Of a stretch of 40,166 nucleotides of DNA, positions 2,048 through 40,166 are shown piece after piece. Under the pieces are notes generated by a model, which was given only the letters and a program-made list of their open reading frames with translations, was not told where the DNA came from and made no database searches. The stretch is from a virus (lineage: Duplodnaviria > Caudoviricetes): the IMG/VR virus record IMGVR_UViG_3300005259_000072, positions 1-40,166 of that record. One strand, given 5' to 3'. Each line of letters opens with the position of its first letter. Positions within the stretch are counted from its first letter, which is position 1. A program made the position numbers and the translations under genes.

Positions 2048-2093
2048 TGGAGGCGTGGATCGGATTTGAACCGATGAATAACGGTTTTGCAGA
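2048..2093 (-). other. att site: displaced 3' half of tRNA-Cys(GCA), left prophage boundary
   Basis: Reverse complement reads TCT-GCA-AA-ACCGT-TATTC-ATCGG-TTCAAAT-CCGAT-CCACGCC-T-CCA (anticodon loop, T-arm, 3' acceptor strand, CCA). The 5' anticodon stem, D-arm and 5' acceptor strand are replaced by unrelated sequence. Confidence 0.88.
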
Positions 2094-2127
2094 GCGCTCA
2101 ATCGGTAGAGAAGCCTTCCCGTTTAGC

Positions 2128-2154
2128 CTCAAAAAGCTTTGTGCCCACTCTAGA
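2128..2154 (+). promoter_or_regulatory. Putative phage RNAP promoter, copy 1 (CTCAAAAAGCTTTGTGCCCACTCT-AGA)
   Basis: 24-nt exact match to 5187-5210. The CACTCTA|G end aligns with T7 CACTATA|G. Confidence 0.75.
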
Positions 2155-2176
2155 AAGAATTGGTTTTATACGATTC

Positions 2177-2198
2177 TGGTAGATGGTTGGTAGATGGT
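2177..2198 (+). repeat. Tandem 11-bp repeat TGGTAGATGGT x2, candidate integrase arm-type sites
   Basis: Exact tandem copies at 2177-2187 and 2188-2198, about 85 bp inside the att core. Confidence 0.55.
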
Positions 2199-2207
2199 AC
2201 AGAACCA

Positions 2208-2233
2208 TCAAAAGCTTTGTGCATACTCTTAGA
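2208..2233 (+). promoter_or_regulatory. Putative phage RNAP promoter, copy 2 (TCAAAAGCTTTGTGCATACTCT-TAGA)
   Basis: Variant of the repeated motif with two core substitutions, just upstream of the xis-like RBS. Confidence 0.6.
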
Positions 2234-2276
2234 ATGGATCAACAACACCCCCACCAAAACCATAGGAGAAAAAGCA

Positions 2277-2489
2277 GTGAGTACCCCCGAAGCAACCCCC
2301 AATGTCCCCGTTGTAAATAACCAGCAACAGTTCTTCACCCCCAGTCAGGCAGCAACATTACTTCAAGTGTCCAGTAAAACGGTTCTCGCCTGGGCACGGC
2401 AAAAGAAAATAGACGCACTTATCATAGGAGATACGGTGCGCATCCCCCGAGAAGTCCTTTATCCTGCCAACCTGCCAAATAGAAGATAG
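2277..2489 (+). CDS. Excisionase-like MerR/HTH_17 DNA-binding protein (70 aa)
   Basis: FFTPSQAATLLQVSSKTVLAWARQKKIDALIIGDTVRIP is a typical HTH_17/Xis pattern. GTG start at 2277 follows AGGAG. Gene lies next to att. Confidence 0.8.
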   Translation: MSTPEATPNVPVVNNQQQFFTPSQAATLLQVSSKTVLAWARQKKIDALIIGDTVRIPREVLYPANLPNRR

Positions 2490-2519
2490 AAGATTTTACT
2501 TTCTAAATTCTGTTGGAAA

Positions 2520-2564
2520 TTAGGATGTTATACATTTGCGATAACACCCTAACCCCCTTATATT
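2520..2564 (+). promoter_or_regulatory. Candidate sigma70 promoter for the RNAP gene, overlapped by an inverted repeat
   Basis: TTGCGA (2536-2541) - 17 nt - TATATT (2559-2564). Inverted repeat TTAGGATGTTAT (2520-2531) / ATAACACCCTAA (2541-2552), 11 of 12 complementary. Confidence 0.5.
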
Positions 2565-2623
2565 CTCCATCCCACCACAAAATATCCAGGCTCATACTCC
2601 GAGCCGGGGAGAGGATTTTTGTA

Positions 2624-5179
2624 ATGATCAGTATGGGTAGTGTTTGTAATGAAGTTGGGTCAGAAGCGGTATCTTCTGATGTCGTAGTAGAAGTAGAAGT
2701 AAACTCGAACGAATTGCTGATTGATCTGGAAATGCAGATCGAAGCAAAGGCGATGGACGTGACCAGGGAGCGCTATGAGCGTCAACTGGAGCGCATGACC
2801 AGCCAGGGCGATGGGTCTCAGACTGGTGTAGGAAAGCTCTTCATCAAGAAGACTGTAGCGGCTTTTGCTCAGGGTATTGATGAGTTTCTGAACCCAGATA
2901 AGGGGCAGGCAGGTTGGAATACGGGCAGACAGAAGCATGTACGTGGTTTGTTTGATACCCTCGACTTGAAGCCTGTAGAGTATGCGTACATAACCATGAC
3001 GGTCATCCTGGATCACTGGCTGAAGGACGACAGGACGGTCTTTCAGAGTTACGCACTGGACATTGCAAACAATTGCCTGCGTGAGTACGAGTATCGTCGC
3101 CTGAAGGCTGAGTATCCCGAGTATCTTGCTGAAGTCACTAAAGACATTCAGAAGAAGACCGAATCCAAGAAGCACTTGTGGAAGGTCCTCCGGGATATGA
3201 AGAAGAAGACTTTGGGTTTATACGACATGGAAGTATCAGAGCTGGAACGGCTGTCTTTGGGCTCCAAGCTGCTGGAGATTATGATCGAATCTACCGGGGC
3301 CTTTGAGCTAGACCGTCACGTCAAAGGGAAGGCTGATACTCCGTTGATTCTGAAGCCAGCAGAAGAGTCTCTGCGTATCCTGCGGCAGTCCTCAGACTGG
3401 TTTGCGTTTGCTCATCCGGTGTATCCTATCATGGTAGCCCCGCCTCTGGACTGGACCGATCTGCATACTGGCGGTTACTACAGCCCTGGCAAGTATCTTC
3501 AGCCTGATCTGGTCAAGCTGCCTCGCAAGGTCCTCAATCGACTGGAAGGTCACGAGATGCCAGACGTATACAAAGCAATCAACTCGGTGCAGAGTGTGGC
3601 CTGGCGCATCAACACAAAGGTTCTGGACGTGCTCAAAGAGCTTTGGGAGACTACGCCTGGCGGTGTCGCCGGTCTGCCTGAGAAGTACGCTGTGCCGCTG
3701 CCTCCGAAGCCCTGGGGAGAGATCAACTCACCGGAGGAATGGAAGCAATACAAAGAGCAGCACCTGGAATTAGTAAGAACCTGGATGAAGGCAGCAGAAG
3801 CGGCCTATCAGGCTGAAATCAGGTCCGTATCGAGACGACTGGCTATCGGCTCATACATCATCCCGATGGCTGAAGAGGTCCGTAACCATGAGGCAATCTA
3901 CTTCCCGTGGACTTTGGACTTCCGTGGCAGAATGTATCCGCTGGTGCCTTATGTTAATCCACAGGCTGATGATTGCGGTAAGAGTTTGCTGATGTTCGCT
4001 GAAGGCAAGCGGCTGGGCAGTGATGGCGTCTGGTGGCTGGCAATTCACGGGGCGAATACAGCAGGCTTTGACAAGGCGTCCTTTGAAGATCGTGTCGGCT
4101 GGGTCGTAGAGCACGAGGAGATGATCCTGAGCTGTGCCGAGCGTCCTTTGGAAGACCTGAGATGGGCCGATACTGATTCACCCATGCAGTTTCTTGCTTT
4201 TTGTTTTGAGTGGGCGCAGTACAAGATCACAGGCGAAGACACTATTAGTCACCTGCCGGTGGCGATGGATGGTACCTGCAATGGGCTCCAGCATTTATCG
4301 GCCATGCTTCTGGATGAACGTGGCGGCAGTGCGGTTAATCTGCTCCCGGCTGAAAAGCCTGCCGACATCTATACTGAAGTACGTAAAGAGGTAGAAGCCA
4401 GTATTGAGCGGGACATTGCAGGTACTGACGAGGAAAAGCAAGCCAAGGCGAGATTCTGGCAGGGTAAGATCACCCGTAGCCTGGTCAAGCGTCCCACTAT
4501 GACTACTCCATATGGCGTATCTCACCGTGGAGTACATGAGCAGTTGCTTGGCGAGGCTGAATCACTGGGCTTGCTGGTTGGCTGCGCAGTGCCTCCTCGG
4601 GTAATGGTTGAGTACCTCACTGAGATTGTCATTCAGGCGATTAGTCATGTGGTACGTAAGGCCAGAGAAGCGATGGACTGGTTGATGGAGGCGGCAAAGG
4701 TCGCCTGCAAGCTTGAGTTGCCTCTGGAGTGGACCACGCCTATCGGCTTCAAAGTCGTGCAGCATTACTCTAAGCTGGCGGGGAATCGAATTAACTTATT
4801 TATAGGCAAGACACGCATCCGGCTGACATCAGGGGAAGTTACCACTGAACTGGATACGAGACATCAAGTATCGGGCATTGCCCCTAACTTTGTGCACTCG
4901 CTGGACGCATCCATGCTAATGGGGACGGTGAATAAGCTGGTGGAGATCGGAGAAAAGTCGTTTGCCTTTATTCATGACTCTTATGGAGTCCATGCCAGTG
5001 AGGTAGACAAGCTTCACCAGATTCTACGTGATCAGTTTATCCGTATTTACACTAATAGAATTATTAGTAGTGCAAAGAACAAATGGGAACAGGCGTGGAA
5101 CGCTGAGTTGCCTGATGAACCGACAATGGGATCGCTGGACATCAACCAGGTGCGATACAGCAGTTATTTCTTTGCTTGA
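2624..5179 (+). CDS. T7-like single-subunit DNA-directed RNA polymerase (gp1-like)
   Basis: DFRGRMYP, motif A DGTCNGLQH, motif B RSLVKRPTMTTPYG, APNFVHSLDA, motif C IHDS, C-terminal YFFA. Start placed at ATG 2624 after GAGAGG; the ORF is open from 2513. Confidence 0.97.
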   Translation: MISMGSVCNEVGSEAVSSDVVVEVEVNSNELLIDLEMQIEAKAMDVTRERYERQLERMTSQGDGSQTGVGKLFIKKTVAAFAQGIDEFLNPDKGQAGWNTGRQKHVRGLFDTLDLKPVEYAYITMTVILDHWLKDDRTVFQSYALDIANNCLREYEYRRLKAEYPEYLAEVTKDIQKKTESKKHLWKVLRDMKKKTLGLYDMEVSELERLSLGSKLLEIMIESTGAFELDRHVKGKADTPLILKPAEESLRILRQSSDWFAFAHPVYPIMVAPPLDWTDLHTGGYYSPGKYLQPDLVKLPRKVLNRLEGHEMPDVYKAINSVQSVAWRINTKVLDVLKELWETTPGGVAGLPEKYAVPLPPKPWGEINSPEEWKQYKEQHLELVRTWMKAAEAAYQAEIRSVSRRLAIGSYIIPMAEEVRNHEAIYFPWTLDFRGRMYPLVPYVNPQADDCGKSLLMFAEGKRLGSDGVWWLAIHGANTAGFDKASFEDRVGWVVEHEEMILSCAERPLEDLRWADTDSPMQFLAFCFEWAQYKITGEDTISHLPVAMDGTCNGLQHLSAMLLDERGGSAVNLLPAEKPADIYTEVRKEVEASIERDIAGTDEEKQAKARFWQGKITRSLVKRPTMTTPYGVSHRGVHEQLLGEAESLGLLVGCAVPPRVMVEYLTEIVIQAISHVVRKAREAMDWLMEAAKVACKLELPLEWTTPIGFKVVQHYSKLAGNRINLFIGKTRIRLTSGEVTTELDTRHQVSGIAPNFVHSLDASMLMGTVNKLVEIGEKSFAFIHDSYGVHASEVDKLHQILRDQFIRIYTNRIISSAKNKWEQAWNAELPDEPTMGSLDINQVRYSSYFFA

Positions 5180-5186
5180 TTCTGAG

Positions 5187-5213
5187 CTCAAAAAGCTTTG
5201 TGCCCACTCTTGA
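5187..5213 (+). promoter_or_regulatory. Putative phage RNAP promoter, copy 3, directly after the RNAP gene
   Basis: 24-nt identity with 2128-2151. Position is equivalent to T7 phi1.1A/B. Confidence 0.8.
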
Positions 5214-5989: not shown

Positions 5990-6709
5990 ATGTCAACTAA
6001 ATCCAACAGCAACCGTACTCGCCGTCCCGAATACTTCACACCCAGGGGCATCGCCAAGTTCGCCTTCCTGAACGATCCCCAGACCAAGCTTGACCCGGAC
6101 GGTATCTACTCCGTGGCCCTGCGCCTGCCGACTGAGGATGCAGACACCCAGGTCCTCATTGACATTTACAACCAGGAAAGTGCAGCCGCTCTGATCGAGA
6201 CCCACAAGACCATTGACAAGATCGACAAGCCGGTCAAGGTCAACGGCAAAATCATGAAGCCGGATGAAGCCAAGAAGGCCCTGAAGGATACCCTCGCTAT
6301 TGCCCTGCCGTTTGAGACGGAAGTGGATGAGGAAGGTACCCCCACCGGCAACACGATCTTCAAGTTCAAGATGAAGGCCAAAACCACGGACGAAGACGGC
6401 AACGAGAAAGAACGCCGCCCGGCAGTCTGTGATGCGAATCGACAGGCCGTGAACCTGGATGAAGTTATGATCGGCTCCGGCACTGAGATGCGTGTGAAGT
6501 TCCGTATCGGGACCAACTACATGCAGTCGGCGAATACGCTTTACCTGACCGGCTATATGGCTGCTGTCCAGATCATCAAGCTGGTGCAGTTCAGCGGTGA
6601 TGCCTTCGGTGGTTTCGGTGAAGAAGAAGGTTACAGCTCCAGTGCTTCCGAAGCTGGTGATGTACCCGCCCAGGGTAACGGTGAAGGCGGCGAAAAGGGA
6701 GACTTCTAA
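5990..6709 (+). CDS. Single-stranded DNA-binding protein (gp2.5-like)
   Basis: TPRGIAKFAFLNDP, FKFKMKA, IGSGT, AVQIIKLVQF, acidic tail ending GDF. ATG 5990 follows AAGGA. Confidence 0.92.
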   Translation: MSTKSNSNRTRRPEYFTPRGIAKFAFLNDPQTKLDPDGIYSVALRLPTEDADTQVLIDIYNQESAAALIETHKTIDKIDKPVKVNGKIMKPDEAKKALKDTLAIALPFETEVDEEGTPTGNTIFKFKMKAKTTDEDGNEKERRPAVCDANRQAVNLDEVMIGSGTEMRVKFRIGTNYMQSANTLYLTGYMAAVQIIKLVQFSGDAFGGFGEEEGYSSSASEAGDVPAQGNGEGGEKGDF

Positions 6710-6711
6710 TC

Positions 6712-6828
6712 ATGGCTTCCAAAGCGCACAAAGACGCCGCAACCAGTCGTGAGGTCGAAGCGATGTTCAACTCTTACAGTAAAGGCTGGCGGGGATACTG
6801 CCGGTACGGATACAGCAAGGGCAAATGA
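6712..6828 (+). CDS. Small hypothetical protein (38 aa)
   Basis: Fills the SSB-endonuclease gap; GGGAG upstream; ATGA overlap with the endonuclease start. Confidence 0.5.
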   Translation: MASKAHKDAATSREVEAMFNSYSKGWRGYCRYGYSKGK

Positions 6829-7250
6829 GCCGAGCCTTTCGACCCTGCGCCAAGCCCTCGACGGTGGCCCTGAAAATGGGCTTCCGAAGTGGGTTTGAGC
6901 AGAGAATCTGTGAGGAACTGAGTAAGGCTAGGGTAGACTATGAGTACGAAGAAATGAAAGTACCGTATGTCATCCCGGCCTCTCAGCATACCTACACCCC
7001 GGACTTCTGCGTATATCTGAAGTCTGGAAAAGTAATCATCGTGGAGACCAAGGGACGATTCATGCCGGAGGATCGACAGAAACACCTGCATGTACGTGAG
7101 TCCAATCCTGAACTGGACATCCGCTTTGTCTTCCAGAACCCGAATACCAAGATCACCCCCACTTCCAAGACTACCTACGCTATGTGGTGTAATAAGAACG
7201 GCTTCAAGTGGGCGGCAAAATCCATACCGAAGGAGTGGCTCAGTGAGTAA
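6825..7250 (+). CDS. Endonuclease I / Holliday junction resolvase (gp3-like)
   Basis: GFRSGFE, YTPDF, VETKGRF, DRQKHL, PELDIRFVF. Confidence 0.96.
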   Translation: MSRAFRPCAKPSTVALKMGFRSGFEQRICEELSKARVDYEYEEMKVPYVIPASQHTYTPDFCVYLKSGKVIIVETKGRFMPEDRQKHLHVRESNPELDIRFVFQNPNTKITPTSKTTYAMWCNKNGFKWAAKSIPKEWLSE

Positions 7251-7527
7251 CAAAAGACTTAGTAAGGCACAGCTGGGTTTGTTGGAAGAGGTTGCGGGTC
7301 AGCCGGTCAAGAAGACGCTCCGGTTTGGCATGAAGCATAGCCACAGGTTTCGGGGAAACTTTGGGTCCTTTCTAGTAACCGGGGAAACGTTTCAAGTTCT
7401 TTATCGAAACGGCCTGATCCGCATGGATATTGATGACAACTGGCAGGTCACTTTCACAATTACTGCCGAGGGGTTGGCCCTTATCGATAAAGAGCTTGCC
7501 TCCCTTGAGAAAGGCAATAAGCAATGA
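7243..7527 (+). CDS. Hypothetical winged-helix-like protein, paralog A
   Basis: GTG 7243 after AGGAG. C-terminal LYRNGLIR...FTITAEGLAL. Alignable to the next ORF. Confidence 0.6.
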   Translation: MSNKRLSKAQLGLLEEVAGQPVKKTLRFGMKHSHRFRGNFGSFLVTGETFQVLYRNGLIRMDIDDNWQVTFTITAEGLALIDKELASLEKGNKQ

Positions 7528-7817
7528 GCGTCCTCAATGACTCACAGTTTGTAGCTCTCCACGCCATTAATAGTGCCCCTGTCCAAAAACCTCTGGCGCT
7601 GGTAAACAGCTTTTTTGGGGCCTGTACATTTGTGGATGAGCCCTACAAAAGTCTCTGTCGTGACCAGCTCATTAAGATGAAAATTAGTGAGGACTGGATA
7701 GCAACCTTCACGTTGACTAAAAAGGGCCGTGCGTTGTTTGAAAAAGCACAGTTATCCCCGACACTAAGGGTTCCCTTCGATGAGCGAAGTAGTTCAGACG
7801 CACCTGCCATGCCCTGA
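7524..7817 (+). CDS. Hypothetical winged-helix-like protein, paralog B
   Basis: LCRDQLIK...FTLTKKGRAL; overlaps both neighbours. Confidence 0.6.
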   Translation: MSVLNDSQFVALHAINSAPVQKPLALVNSFFGACTFVDEPYKSLCRDQLIKMKISEDWIATFTLTKKGRALFEKAQLSPTLRVPFDERSSSDAPAMP

Positions 7818-9408
7818 CTGTGGCAGCAGTGATGCCCTTTCGATGTATGAAGATGGTGGTACTCACTGCTTCTCCTGTGGGGCAACTCACAAGGACTCGC
7901 CAGCTCCCGCCCCGAGACCACTGAAGGCAACATCCAAGGCACTGCTGACTGACCTGGAGACTGTACCGCTGGAACGGCGTAAGCTGACAGCAGATACGTG
8001 TGCCCGGTTCGGATACAAGATAGGTACGTATGGCGGTCAAACTGTCCAGGTGGCCCCTTACTACAAAGGCAAGGAGCTCAAGGGGCAGAAGATCAGATCA
8101 GCCTGCAAAGACTTCATCTGGCTGGGCAAGAGTCAAGGCATTGAGCTATTCGGTCAGCATCTTTGCAAGGCCGGTGGTAGGCTGGTGATTACCGAAGGCG
8201 AGATCGACTGCATGACAGTAAGTCAATCCTTCAATCACTGCATCGACACCGTATCCATACCGAACGGAGCAGCGGCAGCAGCCAAAGCCATAACCGAGAA
8301 CCTGGAATTTGTTGAGGCATACACGGAGGTCATCCTCTGCTTCGACAATGACAAGGCGGGAAAGGAAGCAATTGAAAAAGTCGTACCTGTCCTGACTCCT
8401 GGCAAGGTCAAGGTAGTATGCTTCCCCGGTGGAGTCAAAGACCCAAGCGACCTGATGCAGGCTGGTAGAGGCAAGGAGATCAAGACACTGATCTTCAACG
8501 CCAAGCCTTACCGACCTGATGAAATCCTCGCCGGGGCTGACGTGTCCCTGCAAGACCTGTGGACTCCGATCACCCAGGGCGTACCCTATGCCTACCCAGG
8601 CCTGCAAGCCAAACTGCAAGGCGCTCGTAAGGGCGAACTAACGTTGTGGACTGCCGGTTCAGGTATTGGTAAATCTACCCAGTGCAGGGAACTGGCCTAT
8701 GCCTATCGCAATCAAGGCCTTCGAGTTGGTATGGTGTATCTCGAAGAGAACATCAAGAAGACCGCTCAAGGCTTCATTGCCATTGACAACAACGTCCCGC
8801 TCGTAACTCTCCGATTGAACCCGGAGGTCATCAGCAGGGACGCTTACCAGGCCTCCTACAATAGACTGATTAAGGCTGACGGATTGTTCCTGTTCAACCA
8901 CTTTGGATCGCTGGACGCCAAGAATCTGCTGGGTAGGCTACGCTATATGGCGGTGGCCCTCAAAGTTGACTTCATCTTCCTCGACCATATCTCGATCATC
9001 GTATCAGGAACCGAGTCAGGGGACGAACGCAAAGACATTGACGTGCTGATGACGGCCCTGCGCAGTCTGATTGAATCGACCGGCGTGGGAGTACATGCAG
9101 TGGTTCACCTGAAGAGAAGTGACAAGAACTTCAACGAGGGTGGGCAGATCAGTCTGAGTGACTTGCGAGGCTCTGCTTCACTGGAACAACTCTCTGATAA
9201 CGTAATCGCTATGGAACGCAACCAGCAGGGAGAGGGTGACGAGCGTAATACATCCACCCTGCGAGTACTGAAGTGTCGTGAGACGGGTGACTGCGGTGAG
9301 GCTGGTCAGGCAGTGTATGTCCGTGAGAGCGGCAGGCTGTTGCCGAAAGAGTTTGCCCAGGTGGACGCTCTGCCTAAACCTCCTGAACCTAAAGATGAGG
9401 ACTTCTAA
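7780..9408 (+). CDS. Primase-helicase (gp4-like)
   Basis: Zn finger CPDC...CFSC, TOPRIM EGEID/FDND, Walker A AGSGIGKS, DHISI, DLRGSASLEQLSD. Confidence 0.97.
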   Translation: MSEVVQTHLPCPDCGSSDALSMYEDGGTHCFSCGATHKDSPAPAPRPLKATSKALLTDLETVPLERRKLTADTCARFGYKIGTYGGQTVQVAPYYKGKELKGQKIRSACKDFIWLGKSQGIELFGQHLCKAGGRLVITEGEIDCMTVSQSFNHCIDTVSIPNGAAAAAKAITENLEFVEAYTEVILCFDNDKAGKEAIEKVVPVLTPGKVKVVCFPGGVKDPSDLMQAGRGKEIKTLIFNAKPYRPDEILAGADVSLQDLWTPITQGVPYAYPGLQAKLQGARKGELTLWTAGSGIGKSTQCRELAYAYRNQGLRVGMVYLEENIKKTAQGFIAIDNNVPLVTLRLNPEVISRDAYQASYNRLIKADGLFLFNHFGSLDAKNLLGRLRYMAVALKVDFIFLDHISIIVSGTESGDERKDIDVLMTALRSLIESTGVGVHAVVHLKRSDKNFNEGGQISLSDLRGSASLEQLSDNVIAMERNQQGEGDERNTSTLRVLKCRETGDCGEAGQAVYVRESGRLLPKEFAQVDALPKPPEPKDEDF

Positions 9409-9410
9409 TA

Positions 9411-9638
9411 GTGAGAGCAAAATTAAACAAACAGGGCTGGCTTGAAATAGAACGTGCGGGTAGGATGAAAGTACAATACTGCCCATATGACCGCCCCTCC
9501 GACATCCCGGCCAGATGTGGCGATTGGTGTCCTAGATTTATTGAGTTTGGGAGGCTGGGATCTTCCGATTCTGTAAAGTTCCACCTTTGCGGAGAAGAAG
9601 TAATATTCTCTGAAGTAATTGATGAGCGGGAACCATGA
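9411..9638 (+). CDS. Small Cys-containing hypothetical protein
   Basis: Tightly packed between primase-helicase and DNA polymerase; CPY...CGDWCPRF. Confidence 0.6.
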   Translation: MRAKLNKQGWLEIERAGRMKVQYCPYDRPSDIPARCGDWCPRFIEFGRLGSSDSVKFHLCGEEVIFSEVIDEREP

Positions 9639-11764: not shown

Positions 11765-11808
11765 AACATTCAATCTCAGTAAACCACTATAAAACAAGGA
11801 ACACCTCT

Positions 11809-12099
11809 ATGGTATTCACTCACACTTACATTTCCAAGGTCCTCATCCTGGAACTCTGCATCAAGCTGCTGGACTACATCGTATTCAGTCGTAAGACCGA
11901 ACGGCGTCAGCTCCAGGAGAAAGTTCTGGGGGACCTCCACAAGCTCCTCCAGATGGTCAAGAAAGATGTACCGGCAGAGGACATCAGCAAAGAAAAGCAG
12001 CGCCTCTGGAACTACTTCGGTCACTTTGAAATCCCGAAATGGCTCCACGCCTCGTACATTGCCACGCTTCAGCAGAAGCCGAAAGGTCCTCGTGACTGA
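11809..12099 (+). CDS. Hypothetical protein
   Basis: AAGGA RBS; operon packing. Confidence 0.6.
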   Translation: MVFTHTYISKVLILELCIKLLDYIVFSRKTERRQLQEKVLGDLHKLLQMVKKDVPAEDISKEKQRLWNYFGHFEIPKWLHASYIATLQQKPKGPRD

Positions 12100-12364: not shown

Positions 12365-12365
12365 T

Positions 12366-13181: not shown

Positions 13182-13237
13182 GAAGCCTAAAGGCCCAAGT
13201 GGGGGACACCACTAAATCAAAAGGAGTTACCCTCATT

Positions 13238-14404: not shown

Positions 14405-14405
14405 C

Positions 14406-29349: not shown

Positions 29350-29350
29350 A

Positions 29351-32300: not shown

Positions 32301-32968
32301 AGTTTGCAAAAGGACAGCTCCGGTCCCTCATCCCGATGGCAGGCGCTCAGAAGACGGTGAATGACACCATTGATCCAAACATGAAAGAAGCTCGGAACAT
32401 GGTGGACTTCTTCCGCAGCAATACCGTATTGAAGCATTCGCTGCCGAACCGCAAGGACTCGTTAGGCGAAGAGATACCGGTAGAGTCCAGCCCGTTGTCG
32501 GTCATGCTGGGGATCAAGACTTCAACCTATGGAGATGCAGTGCACCGGGAAATTGCCAAGTACCGGCTGTATCCTCCCGATGCCCCCGGCACGGTCCGTG
32601 GAGTGCGTCTGGACGACTCGCAATACCAGCAGTACAAGGGCATTCTGCATGAACTGGGTATGGATACCAAACTGAATGAGCTGGTGTCTAGCCAGGGATA
32701 CAGGCAGATGCCGGATGAAGGCAGGGCCACGATGCTGCAACATTACTTGGGCAAGTACCGGGAGTATGCGGCTAACCTGTTAACGGTGAGAGATTCCCGC
32801 CTGCGCACCGATATCGTCAACAAACAGAAGTTCGTATTGGACCTGATGGTGAGAGACCCGCAAAGGTATGCCTCGCTTGCCGATGACCTTCAGGGGATTC
32901 GTGATTATCACAAACCGAAGTACGAACTGACCAAAGCAACCAACCCTAATATGGAAGGAATCCAGTAG
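29351..32968 (+). CDS. Large internal virion protein, gp16-like
   Basis: 1205 aa; NILSG..TQ.VN, PFFRTP.N and YNRVDPLG motifs typical of gp16-like ejection proteins. Confidence 0.75.
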   Translation: MSLYNSETVADQTHYNAQAGPAGTPPSPPPETDNYEYGTLTRAAMGIANVPGTFVDDLVSLGEDVTGWITGDKVEWFDVPQTIGEKGWMVNTDLGTAGEVTEQVGTFALGLLLSWTGIGEAGLLGQAGKLGKVGKLAEWASKAQAGELGRASRLGIEAIKGAGVDFALSDTKDGNLSNLLNEFPMLKDTVVTYLKHDGDDSQLMKRMKNAMEGIPLGIATDYLFEGLSKILKYKRAGIDAAAEGDEAKLLQGVERETGLETAPVDRNISALSDITPKPLTHQDEALEATEKPVATTLKEDMLMTPEGRQRTLLDIYDHIKESGMDAPLKAFENFTHVESPEEVEKLLAGVKEITGRGIQFDELGNRIPVRTLAETDRLSDSVPKELLSDLGLSMDALREQGRVMNNMDVYLTGWYKVLNAKANEAVRLAGRITDGNADALEKAQFLKLLEFQMEAQPYLQDIRAGIGRSLSAHRINISGSPKYLSQVTKEELEDPSAGFLKNKLKEILDERGGDKGVSELAKIIRDQAQVNSKGEVQLKDFLNTARSLQGSKWLNVLQEFRLTNILSGLSTQGVNVLGNSLAFMVRDLWEQGVAAGIGAFRSGKDRVYFSEVLGRAQSIGESLKDFFSTLAGDISSQAGEKGWLKALAGAGDSVNRASLDWADRATTEGIVSKAISSKYLNLDPHMPLGWVVDQYGRLARSVSFGAMNVTDAAAVHMGFYSELSALLQRHCLMNEITEQELWKGNMKRYVLDYARRGTMPKGVPEKTCLLIQQFYDDAMHQAKVDTFKDALDPSGLAGNFSRWLNQKDSYSPQLMKTFVVPFFRTPMNILEFVKARTPLLHKAAKDYQYVMEHGTQAQKDQITARVITGSLCYMGATGLYFSGALTGAHDPKERDDLLAAGVPEYAVKIGDRFYCYNRVDPLGCFLGIAADALGCAKYMKDGEYGAMSATLVTAAVKTAIGKSYMKGIGDLYNAASSPAQFGEQFAKGQLRSLIPMAGAQKTVNDTIDPNMKEARNMVDFFRSNTVLKHSLPNRKDSLGEEIPVESSPLSVMLGIKTSTYGDAVHREIAKYRLYPPDAPGTVRGVRLDDSQYQQYKGILHELGMDTKLNELVSSQGYRQMPDEGRATMLQHYLGKYREYAANLLTVRDSRLRTDIVNKQKFVLDLMVRDPQRYASLADDLQGIRDYHKPKYELTKATNPNMEGIQ

Positions 32969-32969
32969 A

Positions 32970-33218
32970 GTGAGCAAAAGAGCGAACGATTCTGTCCTGT
33001 CCGAACTCCACGTCTGCCTTGCAGAACAGATGCTCAAGCGTCTAATCAGTGGCGAAGCTTCGGCAGCGGAGATGAACGCTATCCGACAGTTCCTGAAAGA
33101 CAACGAGATCACGGCAGAGATTGCCCCCGGCACGGTGATCGGAGCACTGAAAGAGGAACTGAGTGAAGACGACCACAGCTATCTGAAGCTGGTGGGAGGT
33201 CAGGCTAATGTCGGCTGA
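32970..33218 (+). CDS. Terminase small subunit (gp18-like)
   Basis: LH...A...GEASAA.....FLKDNEIT. Confidence 0.85.
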   Translation: MSKRANDSVLSELHVCLAEQMLKRLISGEASAAEMNAIRQFLKDNEITAEIAPGTVIGALKEELSEDDHSYLKLVGGQANVG

Positions 33219-33227
33219 GGCACATAG

Positions 33228-33461
33228 ATGACCTTATCCAGCGATTCGTTAGTTACCCTCCTGACGGCAGGAGCAGGAATTGTAACGACTGGCCTTGGAG
33301 CCATTGTGGGTGCCCTGTGGGGGCATCAGAAGGAACTCGGTAAACGGGTGACGCATGAGCAGTGCAGAAAGAAACGCAAGGACTGCCCGTGCCATAAGAA
33401 GTTAAAAGAGATGAAAAAAGAACAGAAGGAAAAGAAAGCAGAGAATGAAACGTGTCAGTAA
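33228..33461 (+). CDS. Single-TM protein with a basic tail, holin-like
   Basis: One N-terminal hydrophobic helix, K/E-rich C-terminus, lysis-region position. Confidence 0.45.
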   Translation: MTLSSDSLVTLLTAGAGIVTTGLGAIVGALWGHQKELGKRVTHEQCRKKRKDCPCHKKLKEMKKEQKEKKAENETCQ

Positions 33462-33906
33462 AATTATGACCGGCATGGCCCTGGCGGCGATGCTGGCAGG
33501 GTTCGGCAGCGGTTGCCTCAGTACCACGAAGGTCACTGAGTATGACCTCGCCACCGGCAAGGTTGCCAAAGTCACGGAGACCTCGGAACCGATTGTCGGC
33601 CAGATCACCAAGTCCACCAAGGACAAGACGGTGTTCATGTGGGAAAGCGGCTGGTATGCCCAGATCGTAGCGGAGTTCACCGGGTCCAGCAGCGCCCTGC
33701 CGAACTTCGACTTCAAGGGTGGGAACCTCGACAAGGGCCTCCTGACGATCCACAAGGACCAGGCAAACATGACTAACCTGGCCGACTGCATCAAAGCGGC
33801 CCGGTCCAACTCGGTATCGATGGGTGCAACCGGGGTGAGCAGCTCCAGTGGTTCGGCCTCCGCAACCAACAGCCAGACCTCCAACAGCACCTCTTCGGGT
33901 AAGTAA
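33445..33906 (+). CDS. Predicted lipoprotein
   Basis: MKRVSK + hydrophobic core + GSGC lipobox-like motif; Ser-rich tail. Confidence 0.6.
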   Translation: MKRVSKIMTGMALAAMLAGFGSGCLSTTKVTEYDLATGKVAKVTETSEPIVGQITKSTKDKTVFMWESGWYAQIVAEFTGSSSALPNFDFKGGNLDKGLLTIHKDQANMTNLADCIKAARSNSVSMGATGVSSSSGSASATNSQTSNSTSSGK

Positions 33907-34323
33907 GTGTCCCGTACCTATTCCCTGTCCAACATTGTCGTGGTGGACGGGGATACCATCAAAGCGGATATTGAACTGGGCCTGGGCGTAAGCCTGATCC
34001 AGAAGCATATTCGGCTGGCTGATGTGGATACTCCCGAAACGCACTCGCACAATCTGACTGAGAAGGCCGCTGGCATGGCGGTCAAGACGTGGCTGGCTAA
34101 TCGACTGCTCAATCACAGCAGCGGTGAACCTACTATCGTTGATCCTGAGTTGGACAAGTATGGCCGTATTCTGGCGGTACTGCGATCCGGTGAGGTGAAC
34201 GTGTGCCAAGAGATGACGGACAAGGGCTTTGCCAGACGGTATGAGGGCGAGGCCAAGACGCCGTGGGACATGGAAGTCCTGCGCAAAATCATTGCAGAAA
34301 GTACGGTGGTAAGTAATGGATGA
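33907..34323 (+). CDS. Thermonuclease (SNase-like) family protein
   Basis: VVDGDTI, IRLADVDTPE, DKYGRILA. Confidence 0.9.
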   Translation: MSRTYSLSNIVVVDGDTIKADIELGLGVSLIQKHIRLADVDTPETHSHNLTEKAAGMAVKTWLANRLLNHSSGEPTIVDPELDKYGRILAVLRSGEVNVCQEMTDKGFARRYEGEAKTPWDMEVLRKIIAESTVVSNG

Positions 34324-34762
34324 AATGAGCAGCTTCTACTACTCGATGGAGCAGATCAAGGCACTTCGGGCTGAGGTGCTTAAACGGAACCTCAGCAGAC
34401 CGGCATACTTCGACAAGCTGACGGATGAAGACCTGCACCGTATCTGTAACGGCTGCGGCCCTGACTGGATGAGTAAACGAGGCAGGGACTTCCTGACGAA
34501 ACGCTACGAGGTATTCGGCCCGTGTATTATGATTCACGATGTCGAGTACGAATACAGCGACCACAGCAAGGAGAAGTTCAAAGAAGCCAACCAGCGCCTG
34601 TATGACAATGACAGAGCAATCGTGGCAGCTGACTATTCCTGGTGGCGTCCTCTGTTGAAATCCCAGCAGTATTTCCGGGCCTGGGAAATGTACGTGGCCT
34701 GTAAGGATTTGGGCTGGTCGGCATGGACGGACGGAACTCCTCAAAGTCCTCCTGAAGTCTAG
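34316..34762 (+). CDS. Hypothetical protein with a phospholipase A2-like motif
   Basis: CNGCGP ... CIMIHDVEY ... ANQRL resembles the NGCG / HDxxY pattern of PLA2-like folds. Confidence 0.5.
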   Translation: MDEMSSFYYSMEQIKALRAEVLKRNLSRPAYFDKLTDEDLHRICNGCGPDWMSKRGRDFLTKRYEVFGPCIMIHDVEYEYSDHSKEKFKEANQRLYDNDRAIVAADYSWWRPLLKSQQYFRAWEMYVACKDLGWSAWTDGTPQSPPEV

Positions 34763-34794
34763 CTGAACGGACACCCACTTTAAACCCATTCTAC

Positions 34795-34870
34795 GCCCTC
34801 TGGAGCGCACCTTGACGTTCTCCCCTACCAACTTACGGGAAGACAGCAAGCAGGCCTCCAGAGGGCTTTT
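34795..34870 (+). promoter_or_regulatory. Long hairpin upstream of terL (RNase III site- or attenuator-like)
   Basis: Perfect 11-bp stem GCCCTCTGGAG (34795-34805) / CTCCAGAGGGC (34856-34866), further inner pairing, then TTTT. Confidence 0.6.
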
Positions 34871-34886
34871 GCGTTGACTCTAACAG

Positions 34887-36632
34887 ATGAATACAACTCA
34901 CCCTAATATGGTACTGGCGGCAAGAACCAGATTTGCCGTCTTTCTGTACCTGGTATGGCAGCATCTTGGTCTGCCCAAACCTACCAAAATACAAATAGAG
35001 ATAGCCGACTACCTGCAATATGGTGGACGGCGAATCACTGTTCATGCCTTCCGAGGAATCGGGAAGAGCTGGATCACCAGCGCCTACGTCCTCTGGAGGC
35101 TCTGGAATAACCCACAACTAAAGTTCCTGATCGTATCGGCCTCAAAGAATCGGGCAGACGCCTTCAGTACATTCACCCGCAGGCTGATTCAGGAGATGCC
35201 TCTGCTGGCCTGTCTGAAGCCTAGTAAGGATCAGCGGGACAGTAACATTTCCTTTGACGTGGGACCGGCGAAAGCAGCCCATGCGCCCTCGGTAAAGTCC
35301 GTGGGGATCACCGGCCAGATGACCGGGAGTCGTGCCGATGAGATCATTGCAGACGACATTGAGGTATTGAACAACTCACTCACCCAGGATCAGCGGGAGA
35401 AGCTGCTGCACTTTGTGGCTGAGTTTGAATCAATCCTGTCGCCCAACGGATCAATCAAGTTCCTCGGGACTCCTCAGACCATTGAAACGCTGTACCGTCA
35501 GACAGAAGAGCGAGGATACGTACCGAGATACTGGCCTGCCCGTGTACCCAAGGCAAGTTCCCTGGATAACTACGGGATCAGACTGGCTCCGTCCATTATT
35601 GAGGCAATCCATAACGGTACGGCAGAAGGAACTCCTACAGACCCTGAACGGTTCACTGAATGTGACTTGCAGGAACGAGAAGCGGCTATCGGCAAAAGTG
35701 CCTTCATGCTTCAGTTCATGCTGGATACAACCCTCAGTGACGAACAGAAGTACCCGCTCAAGACTTCAGACATCCAGGTAGTGAGTCTGGGAGGACAGCT
35801 CTTCCCAGCACAAATCCAGTGGGGCAAGCTAAAAGATTGTATGCTGCGGGACATTCCGTGCATCGGCATGGGCGGCGACCGGTGGTACAAGCCGGTGTTC
35901 GTATCCCCTGAATGGCTGGAATGCAGCGGCACGGTAATGACAATCGACCCTGCCGGACGAGGCAAGGACCAGACAGCCTACGCAGTAGTATCACAATTGC
36001 ACGGAAACCTGTTCGTGAGAGAGGTTGGTGGATTTGCTGGTGGCTATGAGGATGGAACGCTGAAGGCCCTTGCCGTGACCGCAAAACGCTTTAATGTCAA
36101 TGAGATTGTTATTGAGGCAAACTTCGGTGACGGCATGTTCACCCAACTGTTCACACCGGTATGCTTCAAGATATACCAGTGTGCCATTCAGGAAGTCAAA
36201 CACAACCGCCAGAAAGAGCTTCGGATCATTGATACGCTGGAGCCTCTGCTGGGATCGCACCGGCTGATCTGTGACCAGTCCTTTGTAGAACGGGAAGTGT
36301 CCTCTGCCTTCACCAAGGATGGTCTGAGCGAGGATACCAATCTGAGCACATCCATTCAATACAATCTGTTCTATCAGATGACCAGACTGACCCGTGACCG
36401 TAACTCACTGAAGCACGATGACAAGCTGGACGCTTTAGCCATGGCCTGCGGATACTGGGTGGAGGTGCTGGCACAGGATGCCGAACGCCGAACTCAGGAC
36501 TACCGGGATCAGGAAACCACAAGGGCGCTGGAGGAATTTGTGAGGGACTGCTCTACCGGCAAGGCGGTGGCGCTGGATTACAATACAGGGATCGTTAACC
36601 AGTATCTCATTGGTGGAGATATCTGGGGCTGA
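34887..36632 (+). CDS. Terminase large subunit (gp19-like)
   Basis: AFRGIGKSWIT, SVGITGQMTGSRAD.IIADDIE, IDPAGRGKD, HDD.LDALA. Confidence 0.97.
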   Translation: MNTTHPNMVLAARTRFAVFLYLVWQHLGLPKPTKIQIEIADYLQYGGRRITVHAFRGIGKSWITSAYVLWRLWNNPQLKFLIVSASKNRADAFSTFTRRLIQEMPLLACLKPSKDQRDSNISFDVGPAKAAHAPSVKSVGITGQMTGSRADEIIADDIEVLNNSLTQDQREKLLHFVAEFESILSPNGSIKFLGTPQTIETLYRQTEERGYVPRYWPARVPKASSLDNYGIRLAPSIIEAIHNGTAEGTPTDPERFTECDLQEREAAIGKSAFMLQFMLDTTLSDEQKYPLKTSDIQVVSLGGQLFPAQIQWGKLKDCMLRDIPCIGMGGDRWYKPVFVSPEWLECSGTVMTIDPAGRGKDQTAYAVVSQLHGNLFVREVGGFAGGYEDGTLKALAVTAKRFNVNEIVIEANFGDGMFTQLFTPVCFKIYQCAIQEVKHNRQKELRIIDTLEPLLGSHRLICDQSFVEREVSSAFTKDGLSEDTNLSTSIQYNLFYQMTRLTRDRNSLKHDDKLDALAMACGYWVEVLAQDAERRTQDYRDQETTRALEEFVRDCSTGKAVALDYNTGIVNQYLIGGDIWG

Positions 36633-36693: not shown

Positions 36694-36753
36694 AGTCTCA
36701 AAATCAGTAATAATTATCAAAAGCTATAAAGCCCTCACTATCAACCACTCAAC

Positions 36754-36775
36754 CTTTGTGCCCACTCTTGGAGAG
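36754..36775 (+). promoter_or_regulatory. Putative phage RNAP promoter, copy 5 (phiOR-like)
   Basis: CTTTGTGCCCACTCT-TGGAGAG, 15-nt identity to the core; lies after terL and ahead of the repeat-rich non-coding region. Confidence 0.75.
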
Positions 36776-36839: not shown

Positions 36840-37245
36840 TATAGAGGACCTACTGAGGGTACCATAGAGGGTTGATTGTAATGGGGGTAAGGGGGGACCT
36901 TTAGAGGACCTTATAAGGACCTTAATAAGGCTTATTGAGTACCTCATGAGGTAAATGATATAAATATAGTATTAGAGTATTAATCTGATATTGATTGTAT
37001 TGTGTATGTATCTATACCTCCCCTTATCCCCATACTACAACAGATAGAGCATCTTATCCGATACATGTATTAAGGCCTTGCTAGGGCAGCAAGACAGACA
37101 GAGTAAGTGATTATATAGAAGAGAGCAGAGAAGACCGTATCGAAGACAGGATAGAAGATCGTAGAGAAGACCTTGAGAGGTTTTTGCCAGAAAAATTTGA
37201 AACGGTATACGTTAATGGCGTTCGATCCATGTCCCCCATGAGGTC
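36840..37245. repeat. Candidate genome-terminus region with short-repeat arrays
   Basis: GGACCT at 36846, 36895, 36906, 36917; palindrome TACCTCATGAGGTA at 36940-36953; GAAGA at an exact 12-bp period (37118, 37130, 37142, 37154, 37166); non-coding. Confidence 0.6.
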
Positions 37246-37517
37246 AGAACAAAAGGCTAATACAGTGATGAGGCCGGGCAGTATCTACCATGTATCTACC
37301 AGGAGCAGGAAAACAGGGCAAATTGGCAGGCTTTACAAGGGCCGTTTGAGCTCAGGGCATAAGGCAACAACGGTTTTAAATACCAGCAGTATCTACCTAA
37401 CATCATACTCAAACTGACCTCTGAAGTAGCTTTGTATTGCCCTTCTGAATTGACCTCAAACTGGCCTTGTACTGCTCTTCTTATTTTGGTTATTACTTTG
37501 TATTACATGTATTATCT

Positions 37518-37546
37518 GCCCCGGGCCTATTGCCTGGGGTTTTTTT
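37518..37546 (+). terminator. Intrinsic terminator on the + strand
   Basis: GCCCCGGGC-CTATT-GCCTGGGGT followed by a T run. Confidence 0.7.
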
Positions 37547-37626
37547 GCGTTTTCATCTTATATTCAATTAGGTCTCCCTAATTATGTATAAGTTGCCCTG
37601 TTTTGCGTTTTTATTGGGAATGATTA

Positions 37627-38112
37627 CTAAATTTGATTCCAAACTGTCCAGGTCTCAATTTCCCAATCATAGACCTTATCATCAAACAGAAAAAACTTGT
37701 ACTTGATAAACTCACTACGACTTGGTTGATATGCAGAGTAAGCAGTGGGGTTATTTCCAAAACCTTTAGGTAAGTAGGTAGATACTACATAAGGGCTAAA
37801 TTTGCGCTCATTAACCCAGGCTATTTCTACTGAACGCTCATTTTTAAAATACACTTTAGGTACCTTATACTTAAATGTACCTTTTAGCTGATATTCACTT
37901 TTACCTAGTTGCCTGTCCATAAAGCGAATCTTGCTAAATTTAATCTCAGCAAGGCCCAAAGAAAACAAATCAGCAGCGCCGTATCCTGTCCACTTTAAGG
38001 CCGCTGTAGCGTTATCATCTTCAGGCCTGGGAACAAGAGATTTACAGCCGATCAGCAGGGAAGACACGAGGCCACATAATAATATTAAAACCAGGGCTTT
38101 AAAATTGATCAC
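37627..38112 (-). CDS. Predicted lipoprotein, candidate superinfection-exclusion or lysogenic conversion gene
   Basis: Hydrophobic signal with LIGC lipobox; AT-rich; starts 3 nt after the repressor-like gene on the same strand. Confidence 0.6.
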   Translation of the reverse strand: MINFKALVLILLCGLVSSLLIGCKSLVPRPEDDNATAALKWTGYGAADLFSLGLAEIKFSKIRFMDRQLGKSEYQLKGTFKYKVPKVYFKNERSVEIAWVNERKFSPYVVSTYLPKGFGNNPTAYSAYQPSRSEFIKYKFFLFDDKVYDWEIETWTVWNQI

Positions 38113-38115
38113 TTT

Positions 38116-38442
38116 TCAGTCTCTTTTCTGAATCTTTTCTTTTAATTCCAAAGCATACGTTAACACTTTGCTTTTATCAACCATTTGCAGGCCTTCCAGC
38201 GCCTCAAGAATCGACTTTGTTATACTATCCATATCATTGCAGGGGGTGAGGTTATCAGGGCCTAAAAATGGCCTCAAATGCGGCTCCAATTTTGACCATA
38301 GGACAGATTGTATTTTGTCAACCTCTGGCAGTTTGTACCATGTATTACGATGTATCCCAGTTAAGGCGACAAGCGCAGGTATTCCACCAGTTGACGCCAT
38401 AAGCTGCTTTATTGCAATTTTCTGTGCATTTGTAAGCTTCAT
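38116..38442 (-). CDS. HTH (XRE/Cro-like) regulator, candidate prophage repressor (108 aa)
   Basis: GGIPALVALTGIHRNTWYKL HTH pattern; ATG 38442 after AGGGAG; divergent from the early promoter. Confidence 0.65.
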   Translation of the reverse strand: MKLTNAQKIAIKQLMASTGGIPALVALTGIHRNTWYKLPEVDKIQSVLWSKLEPHLRPFLGPDNLTPCNDMDSITKSILEALEGLQMVDKSKVLTYALELKEKIQKRD

Positions 38443-38545
38443 TTTATTGTCTCCCTGGATAATATACATGCCTTTGTCAAAAAATAAATCGAAACTTTTT
38501 TGAGCTCAAATTTATATAAATGCACAAAAAAGCACACAAATGATA

Positions 38546-38574
38546 TTGACAGCACACAAAACCTCTGCTATTCT
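38546..38574 (+). promoter_or_regulatory. Strong sigma70-type early promoter
   Basis: TTGACA (38546-38551) - 17 nt - TATTCT (38569-38574), with an extended -10 TG. Confidence 0.85.
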
Positions 38575-38641
38575 TTATACCATGCAAGACAACGTGAGTT
38601 AATCAAAACCAAGACAAACCTAAGAAGGAACACGAAAGAAA

Positions 38642-39337
38642 ATGGACAACAAAGAACTTTTAATCACTGCAAAGCGCCTCATTGAAAACAATGAGTATGA
38701 GGCAGAAAGCCACCGCAAAACGATGTTGCAGTTCATTGAGGCAATGACGCCTTTGGTGTTTAAGTCTGAAGCCCGTAAAGGCGCTTTTGATTTATGCAGA
38801 TGGATACAATCCGCTGCTGCAACTTCAAAGGAAGACAAGCGCAGAGTACTTCATAATGTTTTTGTTGGTGAGAATGAAACATGTGCAACCAATGGTAGGA
38901 TTTTGCATGTATATGCAGGGAGATTAAACGGCTTAAATTCTGGCATATACTCTGTGCCAACTATGCAGCAAGTCACTGATGTAGGTACCTACCCTAATTA
39001 TAAGCAGGTCATACCTACAAAGTATGTAGACTCTTGTGAGATATCAATCACCAACTTTGCATGTCGTAATAATACAATGATAACGCTTGCGGATAATGGT
39101 GATGTAATCAATAACGATACTAAAACTGTAGTTGGCCGCCACACTCTGCGCAAATGTACTAATCTGGTGATTTTTTTTCTGAAGCAGCTTGCTAACTCCC
39201 TGGATAAACAGACAGGCACTTTTAAGATGTCCATAGCCGGGAATATGGACCAGGAAAGATCTTCAGTTTGTCGCTTTGATATAAACAAAGATTGCTTTGC
39301 TATTGTGATGTCTTGCATACCTACAACTAAAGCTTAA
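38642..39337 (+). CDS. Truncated DNA polymerase III beta-clamp-like protein
   Basis: SKEDKRRVLHNV...ATNGRILHV and GTYPNYKQVIP parallel DnaN D.R..L.G...ATDGHRL and G.FPDY..V.P; only 231 aa. Confidence 0.55.
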   Translation: MDNKELLITAKRLIENNEYEAESHRKTMLQFIEAMTPLVFKSEARKGAFDLCRWIQSAAATSKEDKRRVLHNVFVGENETCATNGRILHVYAGRLNGLNSGIYSVPTMQQVTDVGTYPNYKQVIPTKYVDSCEISITNFACRNNTMITLADNGDVINNDTKTVVGRHTLRKCTNLVIFFLKQLANSLDKQTGTFKMSIAGNMDQERSSVCRFDINKDCFAIVMSCIPTTKA

Positions 39338-39362
39338 CACAAATTAAGGGGAGATAAAAATC

Positions 39363-40166
39363 ATGGATAGCATTTTAACACGTAACCAGGTTAAGAAGTT
39401 CAACAAGTCAATCCGCTTTGAGGGCAAGCCTGCTAATATCGTTTGTGAAGTCCGCTATGATGACCAGTGCGGCAACGGTCACAACTCGTTTAGCATTACA
39501 GGCCATGTACGGCTTGTGGGCGGTAAAGATTGGGAAATAGGCGGCTGCATTCACGAGGAAATAGCAAAGCACTTCCCGGAGCTTGCCCACCTTATCAAGT
39601 GGCATTTATTTGACAGCAACGGGCCCATGTACTACCTGCAAAACACCATGTATCACGCCAGTGATAAAGATTGTCACGGCTACCGCAAAGGTGAGGCTTG
39701 TTCCTGGAGTCAGTTTATAAAGTTTGGCGACTTCCCTATGCTGTTTCCTGCTGGTAAAACGCTACGGGCTTTAGTGGAGGCTAGTAAAGGCTCTCTTGCT
39801 TTTTGGCAGGGCCTGGAGATTGTACCCATTGACCACAAAAAAGACGATTACCCATTTAAGCCCAAATACAAGTTTACTTGCATGAATACGGTTACAGAGT
39901 GGCATCTGTGTCCCTTTGATACACTCCAGCAGGCAGAAGAGTTTAAGGCGGCTGCAATTTGGTGTAATGGGTGCGTTGAACTTGTCACCTTGCCGGACGA
40001 TTACAGCCTGGGTAAAACTCCAGACTTAGAAGCTGCAAGGGCCTGCGCTGTATGGCCTGAAGCGACATTAGAGCAACTCCAGGACAAAGAGCAGCTTTTA
40101 GCTCGCTTGCCGGGACTAATTGAGGCCTTCAGACATGATATAGAGGCCCTGGGCTTTACCTTCTAA
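39363..40166 (+). CDS. Conserved phage early hypothetical protein
   Basis: GGGGAG RBS; RYDDQCGNGHNSFSITG...GGCIHEEI..HFPEL..LIKWHL...GPMYY pattern seen in phage proteins of unknown function. Confidence 0.7.
   Translation: MDSILTRNQVKKFNKSIRFEGKPANIVCEVRYDDQCGNGHNSFSITGHVRLVGGKDWEIGGCIHEEIAKHFPELAHLIKWHLFDSNGPMYYLQNTMYHASDKDCHGYRKGEACSWSQFIKFGDFPMLFPAGKTLRALVEASKGSLAFWQGLEIVPIDHKKDDYPFKPKYKFTCMNTVTEWHLCPFDTLQQAEEFKAAAIWCNGCVELVTLPDDYSLGKTPDLEAARACAVWPEATLEQLQDKEQLLARLPGLIEAFRHDIEALGFTF

Follow-up and report, generated by a model that had tools for sequence, protein, structure and literature searches.

The 40,166-nucleotide stretch of DNA analysed here (the window; positions 1 to 40,166 of IMG/VR record IMGVR_UViG_3300005259_000072) contains a near-complete T7-like prophage integrated at a bacterial tRNA-Cys site. 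What distinguishes this prophage, judging from its sequence, is likely a predicted excisionase gene (xis) placed directly before the gene for its single-subunit RNA polymerase (RNAP) and behind tandem predicted phage-type promoters. We consider it fairly probable that the integrated phage, which keeps xis and RNAP at one end and its early genes at the other, is silenced by an XRE-like repressor, and that its excision is linked to an RNAP-driven loop.

From left to right, the window holds host genes, one half of a tRNA-Cys gene, xis, RNAP, replication, virion and packaging genes, the terminus, a leftward-oriented regulator pair, and early genes. This confirms the initial annotation, which placed xis and RNAP to the left and the early genes, along with the terminus and a candidate repressor, to the right; its claim that a T7-type gene set begins at a tRNA-Cys 3' fragment was borne out by matches in PHROGs and Pfam. 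The element encodes its own single-subunit RNAP and has T7-type replication and virion genes in the conserved order on one strand, both marks of a T7-like phage; attP between the early region and RNAP, with a tRNA as target, is a trait that it shares with temperate ones. In IMG/VR the record is labeled as a provirus that is 98% complete. Protein mapping indicates that the window is an excerpt of a single 81,597-bp contig, about 41 kb of which lie outside it; the window starts inside a gene, and its end (40166) is the stop codon of the second early open reading frame (ORF).

The left junction and the xis-RNAP cassette

The att core at the left prophage junction is the 3' half of a minus-strand tRNA-Cys(GCA) gene (2048..2093), as recognized by its anatomy. 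The fragment spans the anticodon loop (GCA at 2090-2088), the T-arm and the CCA end, and it is 82-84% identical over 44 nt to annotated tRNA-Cys genes; together, these features confirm the fragment reported by the initial annotation. Read from the sequence, the 3' strand of the anticodon stem finds no pairing partner in the five bases 5' of the loop, as would be expected of a crossover at the loop. The fragment was missed by ARAGORN and by Rfam as a tRNA. An exact copy of it was absent from GTDB genomes and viral contigs, and blastn did not find it in E. coli genomes. No second att copy was found within the window, the longest shared word being 10 bp. A candidate near 37369 (a 9-bp match between repeats with a TAGAT core) was rejected, as chance matches also reach 9-10 bp.

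Downstream of this junction, the xis-like gene (2277..2489, plus strand), with a GTG start and an AGGAG ribosome-binding site, matched TIGR01764 with 35.1 bits (cut-off 28.8) and HTH_17 with 35.4 bits (cut-off 27). It is followed by the RNAP gene (2624..5179, plus strand; phrog_414, E 3e-232), whose start is uncertain, with a database call of 884 aa. The product aligns over its full length with T7 RNAP.

Relatives were collected from viral contigs as the best 80 terL matches and the best 80 RNAP matches, and the fetched loci amounted to 1.96 Mb in total. The window RNAP is 35.5% identical to that of the best isolate, 35.4% to that of Desulfovibrio phage ProddE, 34.9% to that of Pseudomonas phage LUZ100, and 50% to that of one fetched locus, L172, the closest relative among the matches listed. 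A quick RNAP tree with 27 rows placed L172 as the sister of the window phage (SH-aLRT 99). Single-sequence RNAP scans of genomes and viral contigs gave no matches, and no pelagiphage RNAP was found among the 30 best matches to the window RNAP.

The xis-RNAP cassette is common to the window phage and L172. In L172, the order is a minus-strand tRNA-Leu 3' fragment, two copies of a promoter-like motif of its own, a BRO-domain gene, xis, RNAP, and a third copy of the motif, and the equally placed xis-like products are 50% identical over 40 aa. None of the best 80 other RNAP records, of which only 31 reach 90% completeness, has an HTH_17 match above the cut-off, weak HTH_17 matches occur in two of them, several kilobases from RNAP, and none of the 122 ORFs upstream of RNAP in these loci matches HTH_17. 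No MarR-like or cI-like regulator was found beside the window RNAP. Two direct repeats with a TAGAT core, 11 bp apart (2178..2195, plus strand), may be arm-type sites of the integrase. They are kept in L172 (873 and 884), where they have identical spacing and a nearly equal offset from the tRNA fragment.

Some further features were observed in these regions. Repeats with a GGTAGAT core recur in the terminus region of the window (37281-37397 and 37777), mostly inverted and again 11 bp apart. The BRO-N antirepressor-like gene of L172 (1314-2249) lies between the tandem phage-type promoters and xis-RNAP, and in loci L096, L107, L134, and L146, too, a BRO or KilA gene is found before RNAP. On the far side of the L172 tRNA fragment (1-333) lies a leftward ORF with an internal stop, in a flank that may be host or phage DNA.

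Predicted promoters of the phage RNA polymerase

A 15-bp T7-type motif is present in five copies with at most two mismatches, all on the plus strand, against 0.18 copies expected by chance, and none of 100 shuffles reached five copies. Copy 1 (2136..2152) and copy 2 (2214..2230, two mismatches) are located between att and xis, copy 3 (5195-5211) in the place of T7 phi1.1A, copy 4 (18369..18385) before the scaffold gene in the place of T7 phi9, and copy 5 (36753..36769) after terL in the place of T7 phiOR. The copy at 18369..18385, which was outside the matrix training set, scored 20.1, whereas 30 random trials peaked at 17.1. Numbered in the T7 register, the motif has CAC at positions 11-13 as in T7.

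L172 has its own, different motif in three equivalent places, two before xis-RNAP and one right after RNAP. RNAP residues 746, 748, 756, and 758 have been coupled to promoter positions 11, 7-8, 8-9, and 10, respectively (PMC11880802). The specificity loop has R746, N748, R756, and R758 in the window RNAP and R, E, R, and Q in L172; promoter positions 9-11 read CCC in the window phage and CTC in L172 and T7. The L172 motif has C7, C9, T10, and C11, and T7 has Q758 with T10. We regard the prediction that the motif is the promoter of the phage RNAP as well supported by these sequence patterns.

As a side observation, the 322-bp non-coding gap between the scaffold and capsid genes (19196-19517) contains no copy of the motif and shares a 9-bp word with position 23526, before the tail fibre gene.

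The terminus, the candidate repressor and the early region

Arrays of short repeats after terL, together with a terminator at 37518-37540, make 36840..37545 the likely virion terminus. To its right is the leftward regulator pair. The candidate XRE/CI-like repressor (38116..38442, minus strand, 108 aa) is divergent from the early promoter, and its fold bears just a weak resemblance to XRE/CI proteins, which make up most of its best, non-significant matches. It has two relatives among 1.84 billion sequences, and a viral-contig scan gave no matches. Its structural model has a pLDDT of 75.7, and the top Foldseek rows, which are non-significant, are HTH_3/Cro proteins. In VIA comparisons, the best Z was 6.0 (root-mean-square deviation (rmsd) 8.6, 105 aligned), with XRE rows at a Z of about 5 and the dimerisation domain of TP901-1 CI at a Z of 5.3 (rmsd 1.2, 35 aligned). 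In the Atlas, it reached a TM of 0.70 to a CI-repressor cluster, below the Atlas bar. The ORF behind it (37627..38112, minus strand) is lipoprotein-like, with a signal and a lipobox-like Cys read from the sequence; it had no Pfam or NCBIfam match, and a role in superinfection exclusion would be a guess. Leftward ORFs near the terminus in 18 relatives gave no family match (80 of 106 ORFs scanned), but Pfam misses the regulator of the window too. In the same scan, a weak MarR/IclR/HTH_20 match was found just before the integrase in five of the 18.

The intergenic region (38499..38574, plus strand) contains a 12-bp palindrome (38499-38510), two GCACACAAA copies around the -35 box, and a sigma70-like early promoter (38546-38574; TTGACA-17-TATTCT, 10/12 with TG). 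The palindrome, TTTGAGCTCAAA, is perfect at 38499, between the regulator gene and the early promoter. Further window copies are at 5181, with one mismatch, forming with the promoter copy 3 that it abuts, after RNAP, the feature 5181..5211 (plus strand), and at 37345. L172 has copies at 556 and 896 and is the only fetched locus, among the matches listed, with the exact palindrome. Two copies were reached in two of 100 shuffles. A GCACAAA core common to the early operator and the promoter motif was rejected as a candidate (four found, 3.5 expected).

The window ends with the first two early genes (38642..40166, plus strand). Relatives of the second ORF occur in 43 phage records, while the first (38642-39337) has none among phage records. 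Short stretches of the first ORF may resemble the DNA polymerase III beta clamp; it was also compared with the early antitoxin-like gene of ProddE and found unrelated. The GC content is 0.44 in the early region versus 0.53 in the core, and 0.43 versus 0.53 in ProddE. We dismissed the possibility of a separate element at the AT-rich right end, as ProddE has a matching GC drop and the palindrome joins both ends.

An integrase expected beyond the right end of the window

No integrase is encoded within the window. Among the best 80 loci, an integrase lies at most 2.5 kb upstream of RNAP in 28 of the 41 that have at least 2.5 kb of upstream sequence, and all 36 integrase matches are co-oriented. 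In 21 fetched loci where an integrase follows terL, the distance between the two is about 2.4-8.7 kb, and in 20 of them it exceeds the 3.5 kb of DNA that follows terL in the window. Near-complete provirus relatives carried PF00589 at the end opposite RNAP in nine of the ten tested. A mirror case is the provirus G001, where a minus-strand tRNA-Leu 3' fragment, read by eye, precedes RNAP at the near end, and the far end has an integrase followed by an intact minus-strand tRNA-Leu. By analogy with these relatives, an integrase and an intact tRNA likely follow a few kilobases past 40166. The nine proviruses and G001 also support the earlier proposal that attP is located between the early genes and xis-RNAP. 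Rightward extension was attempted: a metagenome scan with the last ORF found only a distant 1.9-kb contig, and a viral scan an unrelated phage.

Core genome, DNA polymerase intron and host flank

The replication and metabolism module (5990..16450, plus strand), assigned with PHROGs and Pfam, encodes SSB, endonuclease I, primase/helicase, DNA polymerase (DNAP), exonuclease, a dNTP pyrophosphohydrolase, and a deaminase-like protein. The DNAP gene (9635-11764) appears split because it contains a group I intron of 270 nt (11005..11274, plus strand; RF00028, 68.4 bits, cut-off 50, E 2e-15) without a homing endonuclease, a feature absent from the initial annotation. Removal of 11005-11274 gives a 619-aa DNAP frame in which the motif lines up with T7 DNAP. 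The assignment as a group I intron is based on a score over the cut-off, a 5' exon ending in U, an intron ending in G, and restoration of the frame, and the genes appear intact after removal of the intron.

The virion and packaging module (16471..36632, plus strand; PHROGs and Pfam) runs from portal to terL, and portal, scaffold, capsid, tail tube A/B, fibre, internal proteins, terS, and terL were identified. It contains a Tphi-like hairpin (20569-20596). Unlike in T7, the tail fibre gene (23552-25096), which has an Ala/Ser/Thr repeat with a 21-bp period, precedes the internal virion genes. The gp14-like protein ends in a Gly/Ser tail encoded by six 12-bp repeats (26676-26771). Between terS and terL (33228-34762) are a holin-like membrane ORF, a lipoprotein-like ORF, a gene of the staphylococcal nuclease family, and an unknown ORF. 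Among the 49 ORFs scanned, there was no clear endolysin and no ligase match.

The two host-type genes in bases 1-2047 are both leftward, that is, they point away from RNAP. A secreted GH39-like glycoside hydrolase (1..1266, minus strand) is truncated at the window edge and matched PF01229 at E 1e-5 with 25 bits, below the 26-bit cut-off; its best Atlas score, 0.87 to GH39/GH42 clusters, is a lead only, and the protein had no scored relatives at 232-739 aa. The gamma-glutamyl cyclotransferase (1279..1722, minus strand; PF06094, E 5e-16) is 76-82% identical to relatives whose contigs reach 70-95 kb. For some Atlas clusters of repressor look-alikes, Lentisphaerota is the commonest phylum (2-6 recorded members), and the glycoside hydrolase gave other phyla. 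A Lentisphaerae/PVC host, as suggested by the initial annotation, stays a guess, as searches with the flanking genes and the tRNA gave no assignment. A literature search found no report joining Lentisphaerae, prophage, and Autographiviridae.

Discussion

The reading that we favour would work as follows. During infection, host polymerase starting at the early promoter (38546) would pass attP and transcribe xis-RNAP, and integration would cut this read-through. In the lysogen, the early promoter would be kept shut by the repressor, perhaps bound to the 12-bp palindrome. Upon induction, integrase would be made from the right arm. Traces of RNAP would set off feedback at the two phage-type promoters upstream of xis-RNAP, and the Xis that this loop yields would permit excision, rejoining the early genes to RNAP. 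The sequence itself shows the gene order, the tRNA fragment, the copies of the motif with their positions, and the conserved xis-RNAP cassette of L172; we infer the functions of integrase, promoters, and repressor, as well as the order of these events. The feedback loop remains after integration and any leak could start it, so a repressor is probably needed.

Several observations weigh against this scheme. At the right end there is indeed a divergent leftward ORF with a weak XRE/CI-like fold, as the initial annotation had it, but this candidate repressor has no Pfam or NCBIfam match and no Foldseek match at E ≤ 0.001. At the early promoter claimed at 38546, the 10/12 site is present, but its description as strong is unproven, sigma70-like sites being no commoner than chance (eight found versus 8.6 expected). 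A sigma70-like site at 2536 that matches 9/12, a conceivable source of the first RNAP molecules in the prophage, does not stand out from chance. The palindrome occurs in L172 also on the far side of the tRNA fragment, so it may be an operator, a recombination site, or a host site, and not necessarily a phage operator. HTH_17 proteins can be regulators instead of excisionases. As for the right end, the integrase and the second att were not seen in the window, the only part read of the 81.6-kb contig; one of the ten provirus relatives lacks PF00589, and one of the other nine has it on the opposite strand. (Provirus G060, locus L134, is a relative with its integrase on the strand opposite to RNAP.) Finally, the promoter motif has just five copies, none of them before the capsid gene. 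C10 is found in only three of the five window copies and T10 in two of the three L172 copies, and N748, which is usually paired with G7 (PMC11880802), is present in the window RNAP, where promoter position 7 is T.

One alternative is a strong form of the initial annotation's model, in which integration itself is the switch, RNAP losing its sole promoter so that the left end needs no repressor. The split geometry is real and general, the host genes on the left point away, no above-chance sigma70-like site precedes xis-RNAP, and phage-type promoters are silent without RNAP, so cutting the read-through would lower the seed level. The initial annotation had proposed that integration uncouples RNAP as part of the lysogeny switch, and the early read-through would indeed be removed; yet two phage-type promoter motifs stay upstream of RNAP and would amplify any leak. 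The BRO antirepressor-like gene in the L172 cassette suggests that a repressor matters. Moreover, T7-like cyanophages with attP downstream of the integrase gave no stable lysogens and had no repressor homologue (PMC8776855), so the uncoupling geometry alone may not silence a prophage. We hold integration as the sole switch to be improbable. The same low probability is given to a grounded or decaying prophage that lost or replaced its right junction or integrase and could not excise. Such decay would fit a record rated as 98% complete whose window has neither an integrase nor a second att, and the lack of a clear endolysin among the scanned ORFs. Against it, the core genes are full length, the window is an excerpt of a longer contig that ends exactly at a stop codon, and 20 of the 21 relatives would lose their integrase too if cut at an equal distance.

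The two remaining explanations concern the motif and the junction. The motif could be a binding site for Xis or the repressor, with the HTH_17 gene encoding a Cox/Cro-like regulator of RNAP. Two of its copies are in the att arm, there are few copies overall, and they partially misfit the published residue-base rules (PMC11880802); but three copies lie far from att at places of T7 promoters, all are co-oriented, and L172 has a different motif in the equivalent places, in line with its different specificity loop. We hold this option to be quite unlikely. Least probable of all, and by our estimate very improbable, is a misassembly or a transient integration captured by the assembly. The junction is known from one contig only, but it coincides exactly with the CCA end of the tRNA, the fragment stops at the anticodon loop, and junctions of this type recur independently in L172 and G001.

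Returning to the favoured reading, an integrated phage with a guarded xis-RNAP loop, neither the split layout nor the tRNA-Cys target is new, because the attP position and tRNA-Cys targets have been published (10.1101/410191; PMC12361551). Among pelagiphages that carry an integrase, attP lies between that gene and RNAP in all 12, and tRNA-Cys is the target of five (10.1101/410191). The same attP position is described as common in a survey from 2025, which reports integrases in 625 of 1143 marine populations (PMC12361551). HTVC019P-type pelagiphages resemble the window phage in their T7-like order, attP position, and likewise split prophage. They differ from it in having integrase and MarR genes; 'excisionase' appears 0 times in the main text of their description; and the cores in their tRNA-Cys genes occupy the 5' end or the middle, whereas the core of the window phage is the 3' half (10.1101/410191).

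In Pseudomonas phage LUZ100, a phage promoter was mapped directly before RNAP, and seeding by read-through, positive feedback, and repression by MarR were proposed, as for the window phage with regard to promoter position and feedback (PMC10134795). LUZ100 differs in having a MarR-integrase operon just upstream; the sections of its description that we consulted mention no xis between promoter and RNAP, and stable lysogens were not obtained (PMC10134795). The T7-like cyanophages P-SSP7 and S-TIP37 share with the window phage attP downstream of the integrase and a tRNA target, and they integrate without lysogeny; the window phage, in contrast, has a candidate repressor and an assembled provirus (PMC8776855). 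Group I introns are known from the DNAP genes of the T7-like phages PhiI, W31, and Pf-WMP3, and these are likewise of the self-splicing type and in a conserved DNAP region, but they encode homing endonucleases, unlike the 270-nt intron of the window (PMC3428280).

Phage ProddE (MZ666938) is also temperate and T7-like, with an integrase upstream of RNAP, an excisionase, a DNAP intron, and an AT-rich early region. Its cI-like repressor gene separates integrase from RNAP, and its early region has xis at the far left, whereas the window phage has its regulator by the early promoter and its xis beside RNAP. Agrobacterium phage Pasto (Boeckman et al. 2022, as cited in the LUZ100 paper) is reportedly a temperate T7-like phage and is grouped here with ProddE. 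Our literature search found no earlier xis-RNAP cassette with phage promoters in T7-like prophages, although Boeckman et al. 2022 may already describe one. The window phage is thus a lineage-specific regulatory variant of a known temperate T7-like layout.

It is possible, though doubtful, that the window phage and L172 represent a deep temperate T7-like lineage, with RNAPs less than 36% identical to those of isolates, in which tandem att-arm promoters drive a self-amplifying unit of xis, RNAP, and, in L172, the antirepressor-like gene, and in which a small XRE repressor at the terminus guards the host-polymerase early promoter as well as the phage-polymerase promoters via the 12-bp palindrome. 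If true, lysis and lysogeny would be switched here in a way that differs from both the MarR-integrase and the cI-RNAP type, perhaps within a PVC-group host.

To the question of what keeps a T7-like prophage silent despite its self-amplifying polymerase, the LUZ100 switch is a hypothetical answer, and T7-like cyanophages integrate without lysogeny. The window phage suggests a compact alternative wiring, made of a xis-RNAP feedback cassette, a repressor at the terminus, and a candidate operator. Its divergent RNAP and the predicted promoter could form an orthogonal expression pair, and a predicted xis placed before RNAP behind phage-type promoters would link excision to the switch-on of the polymerase.

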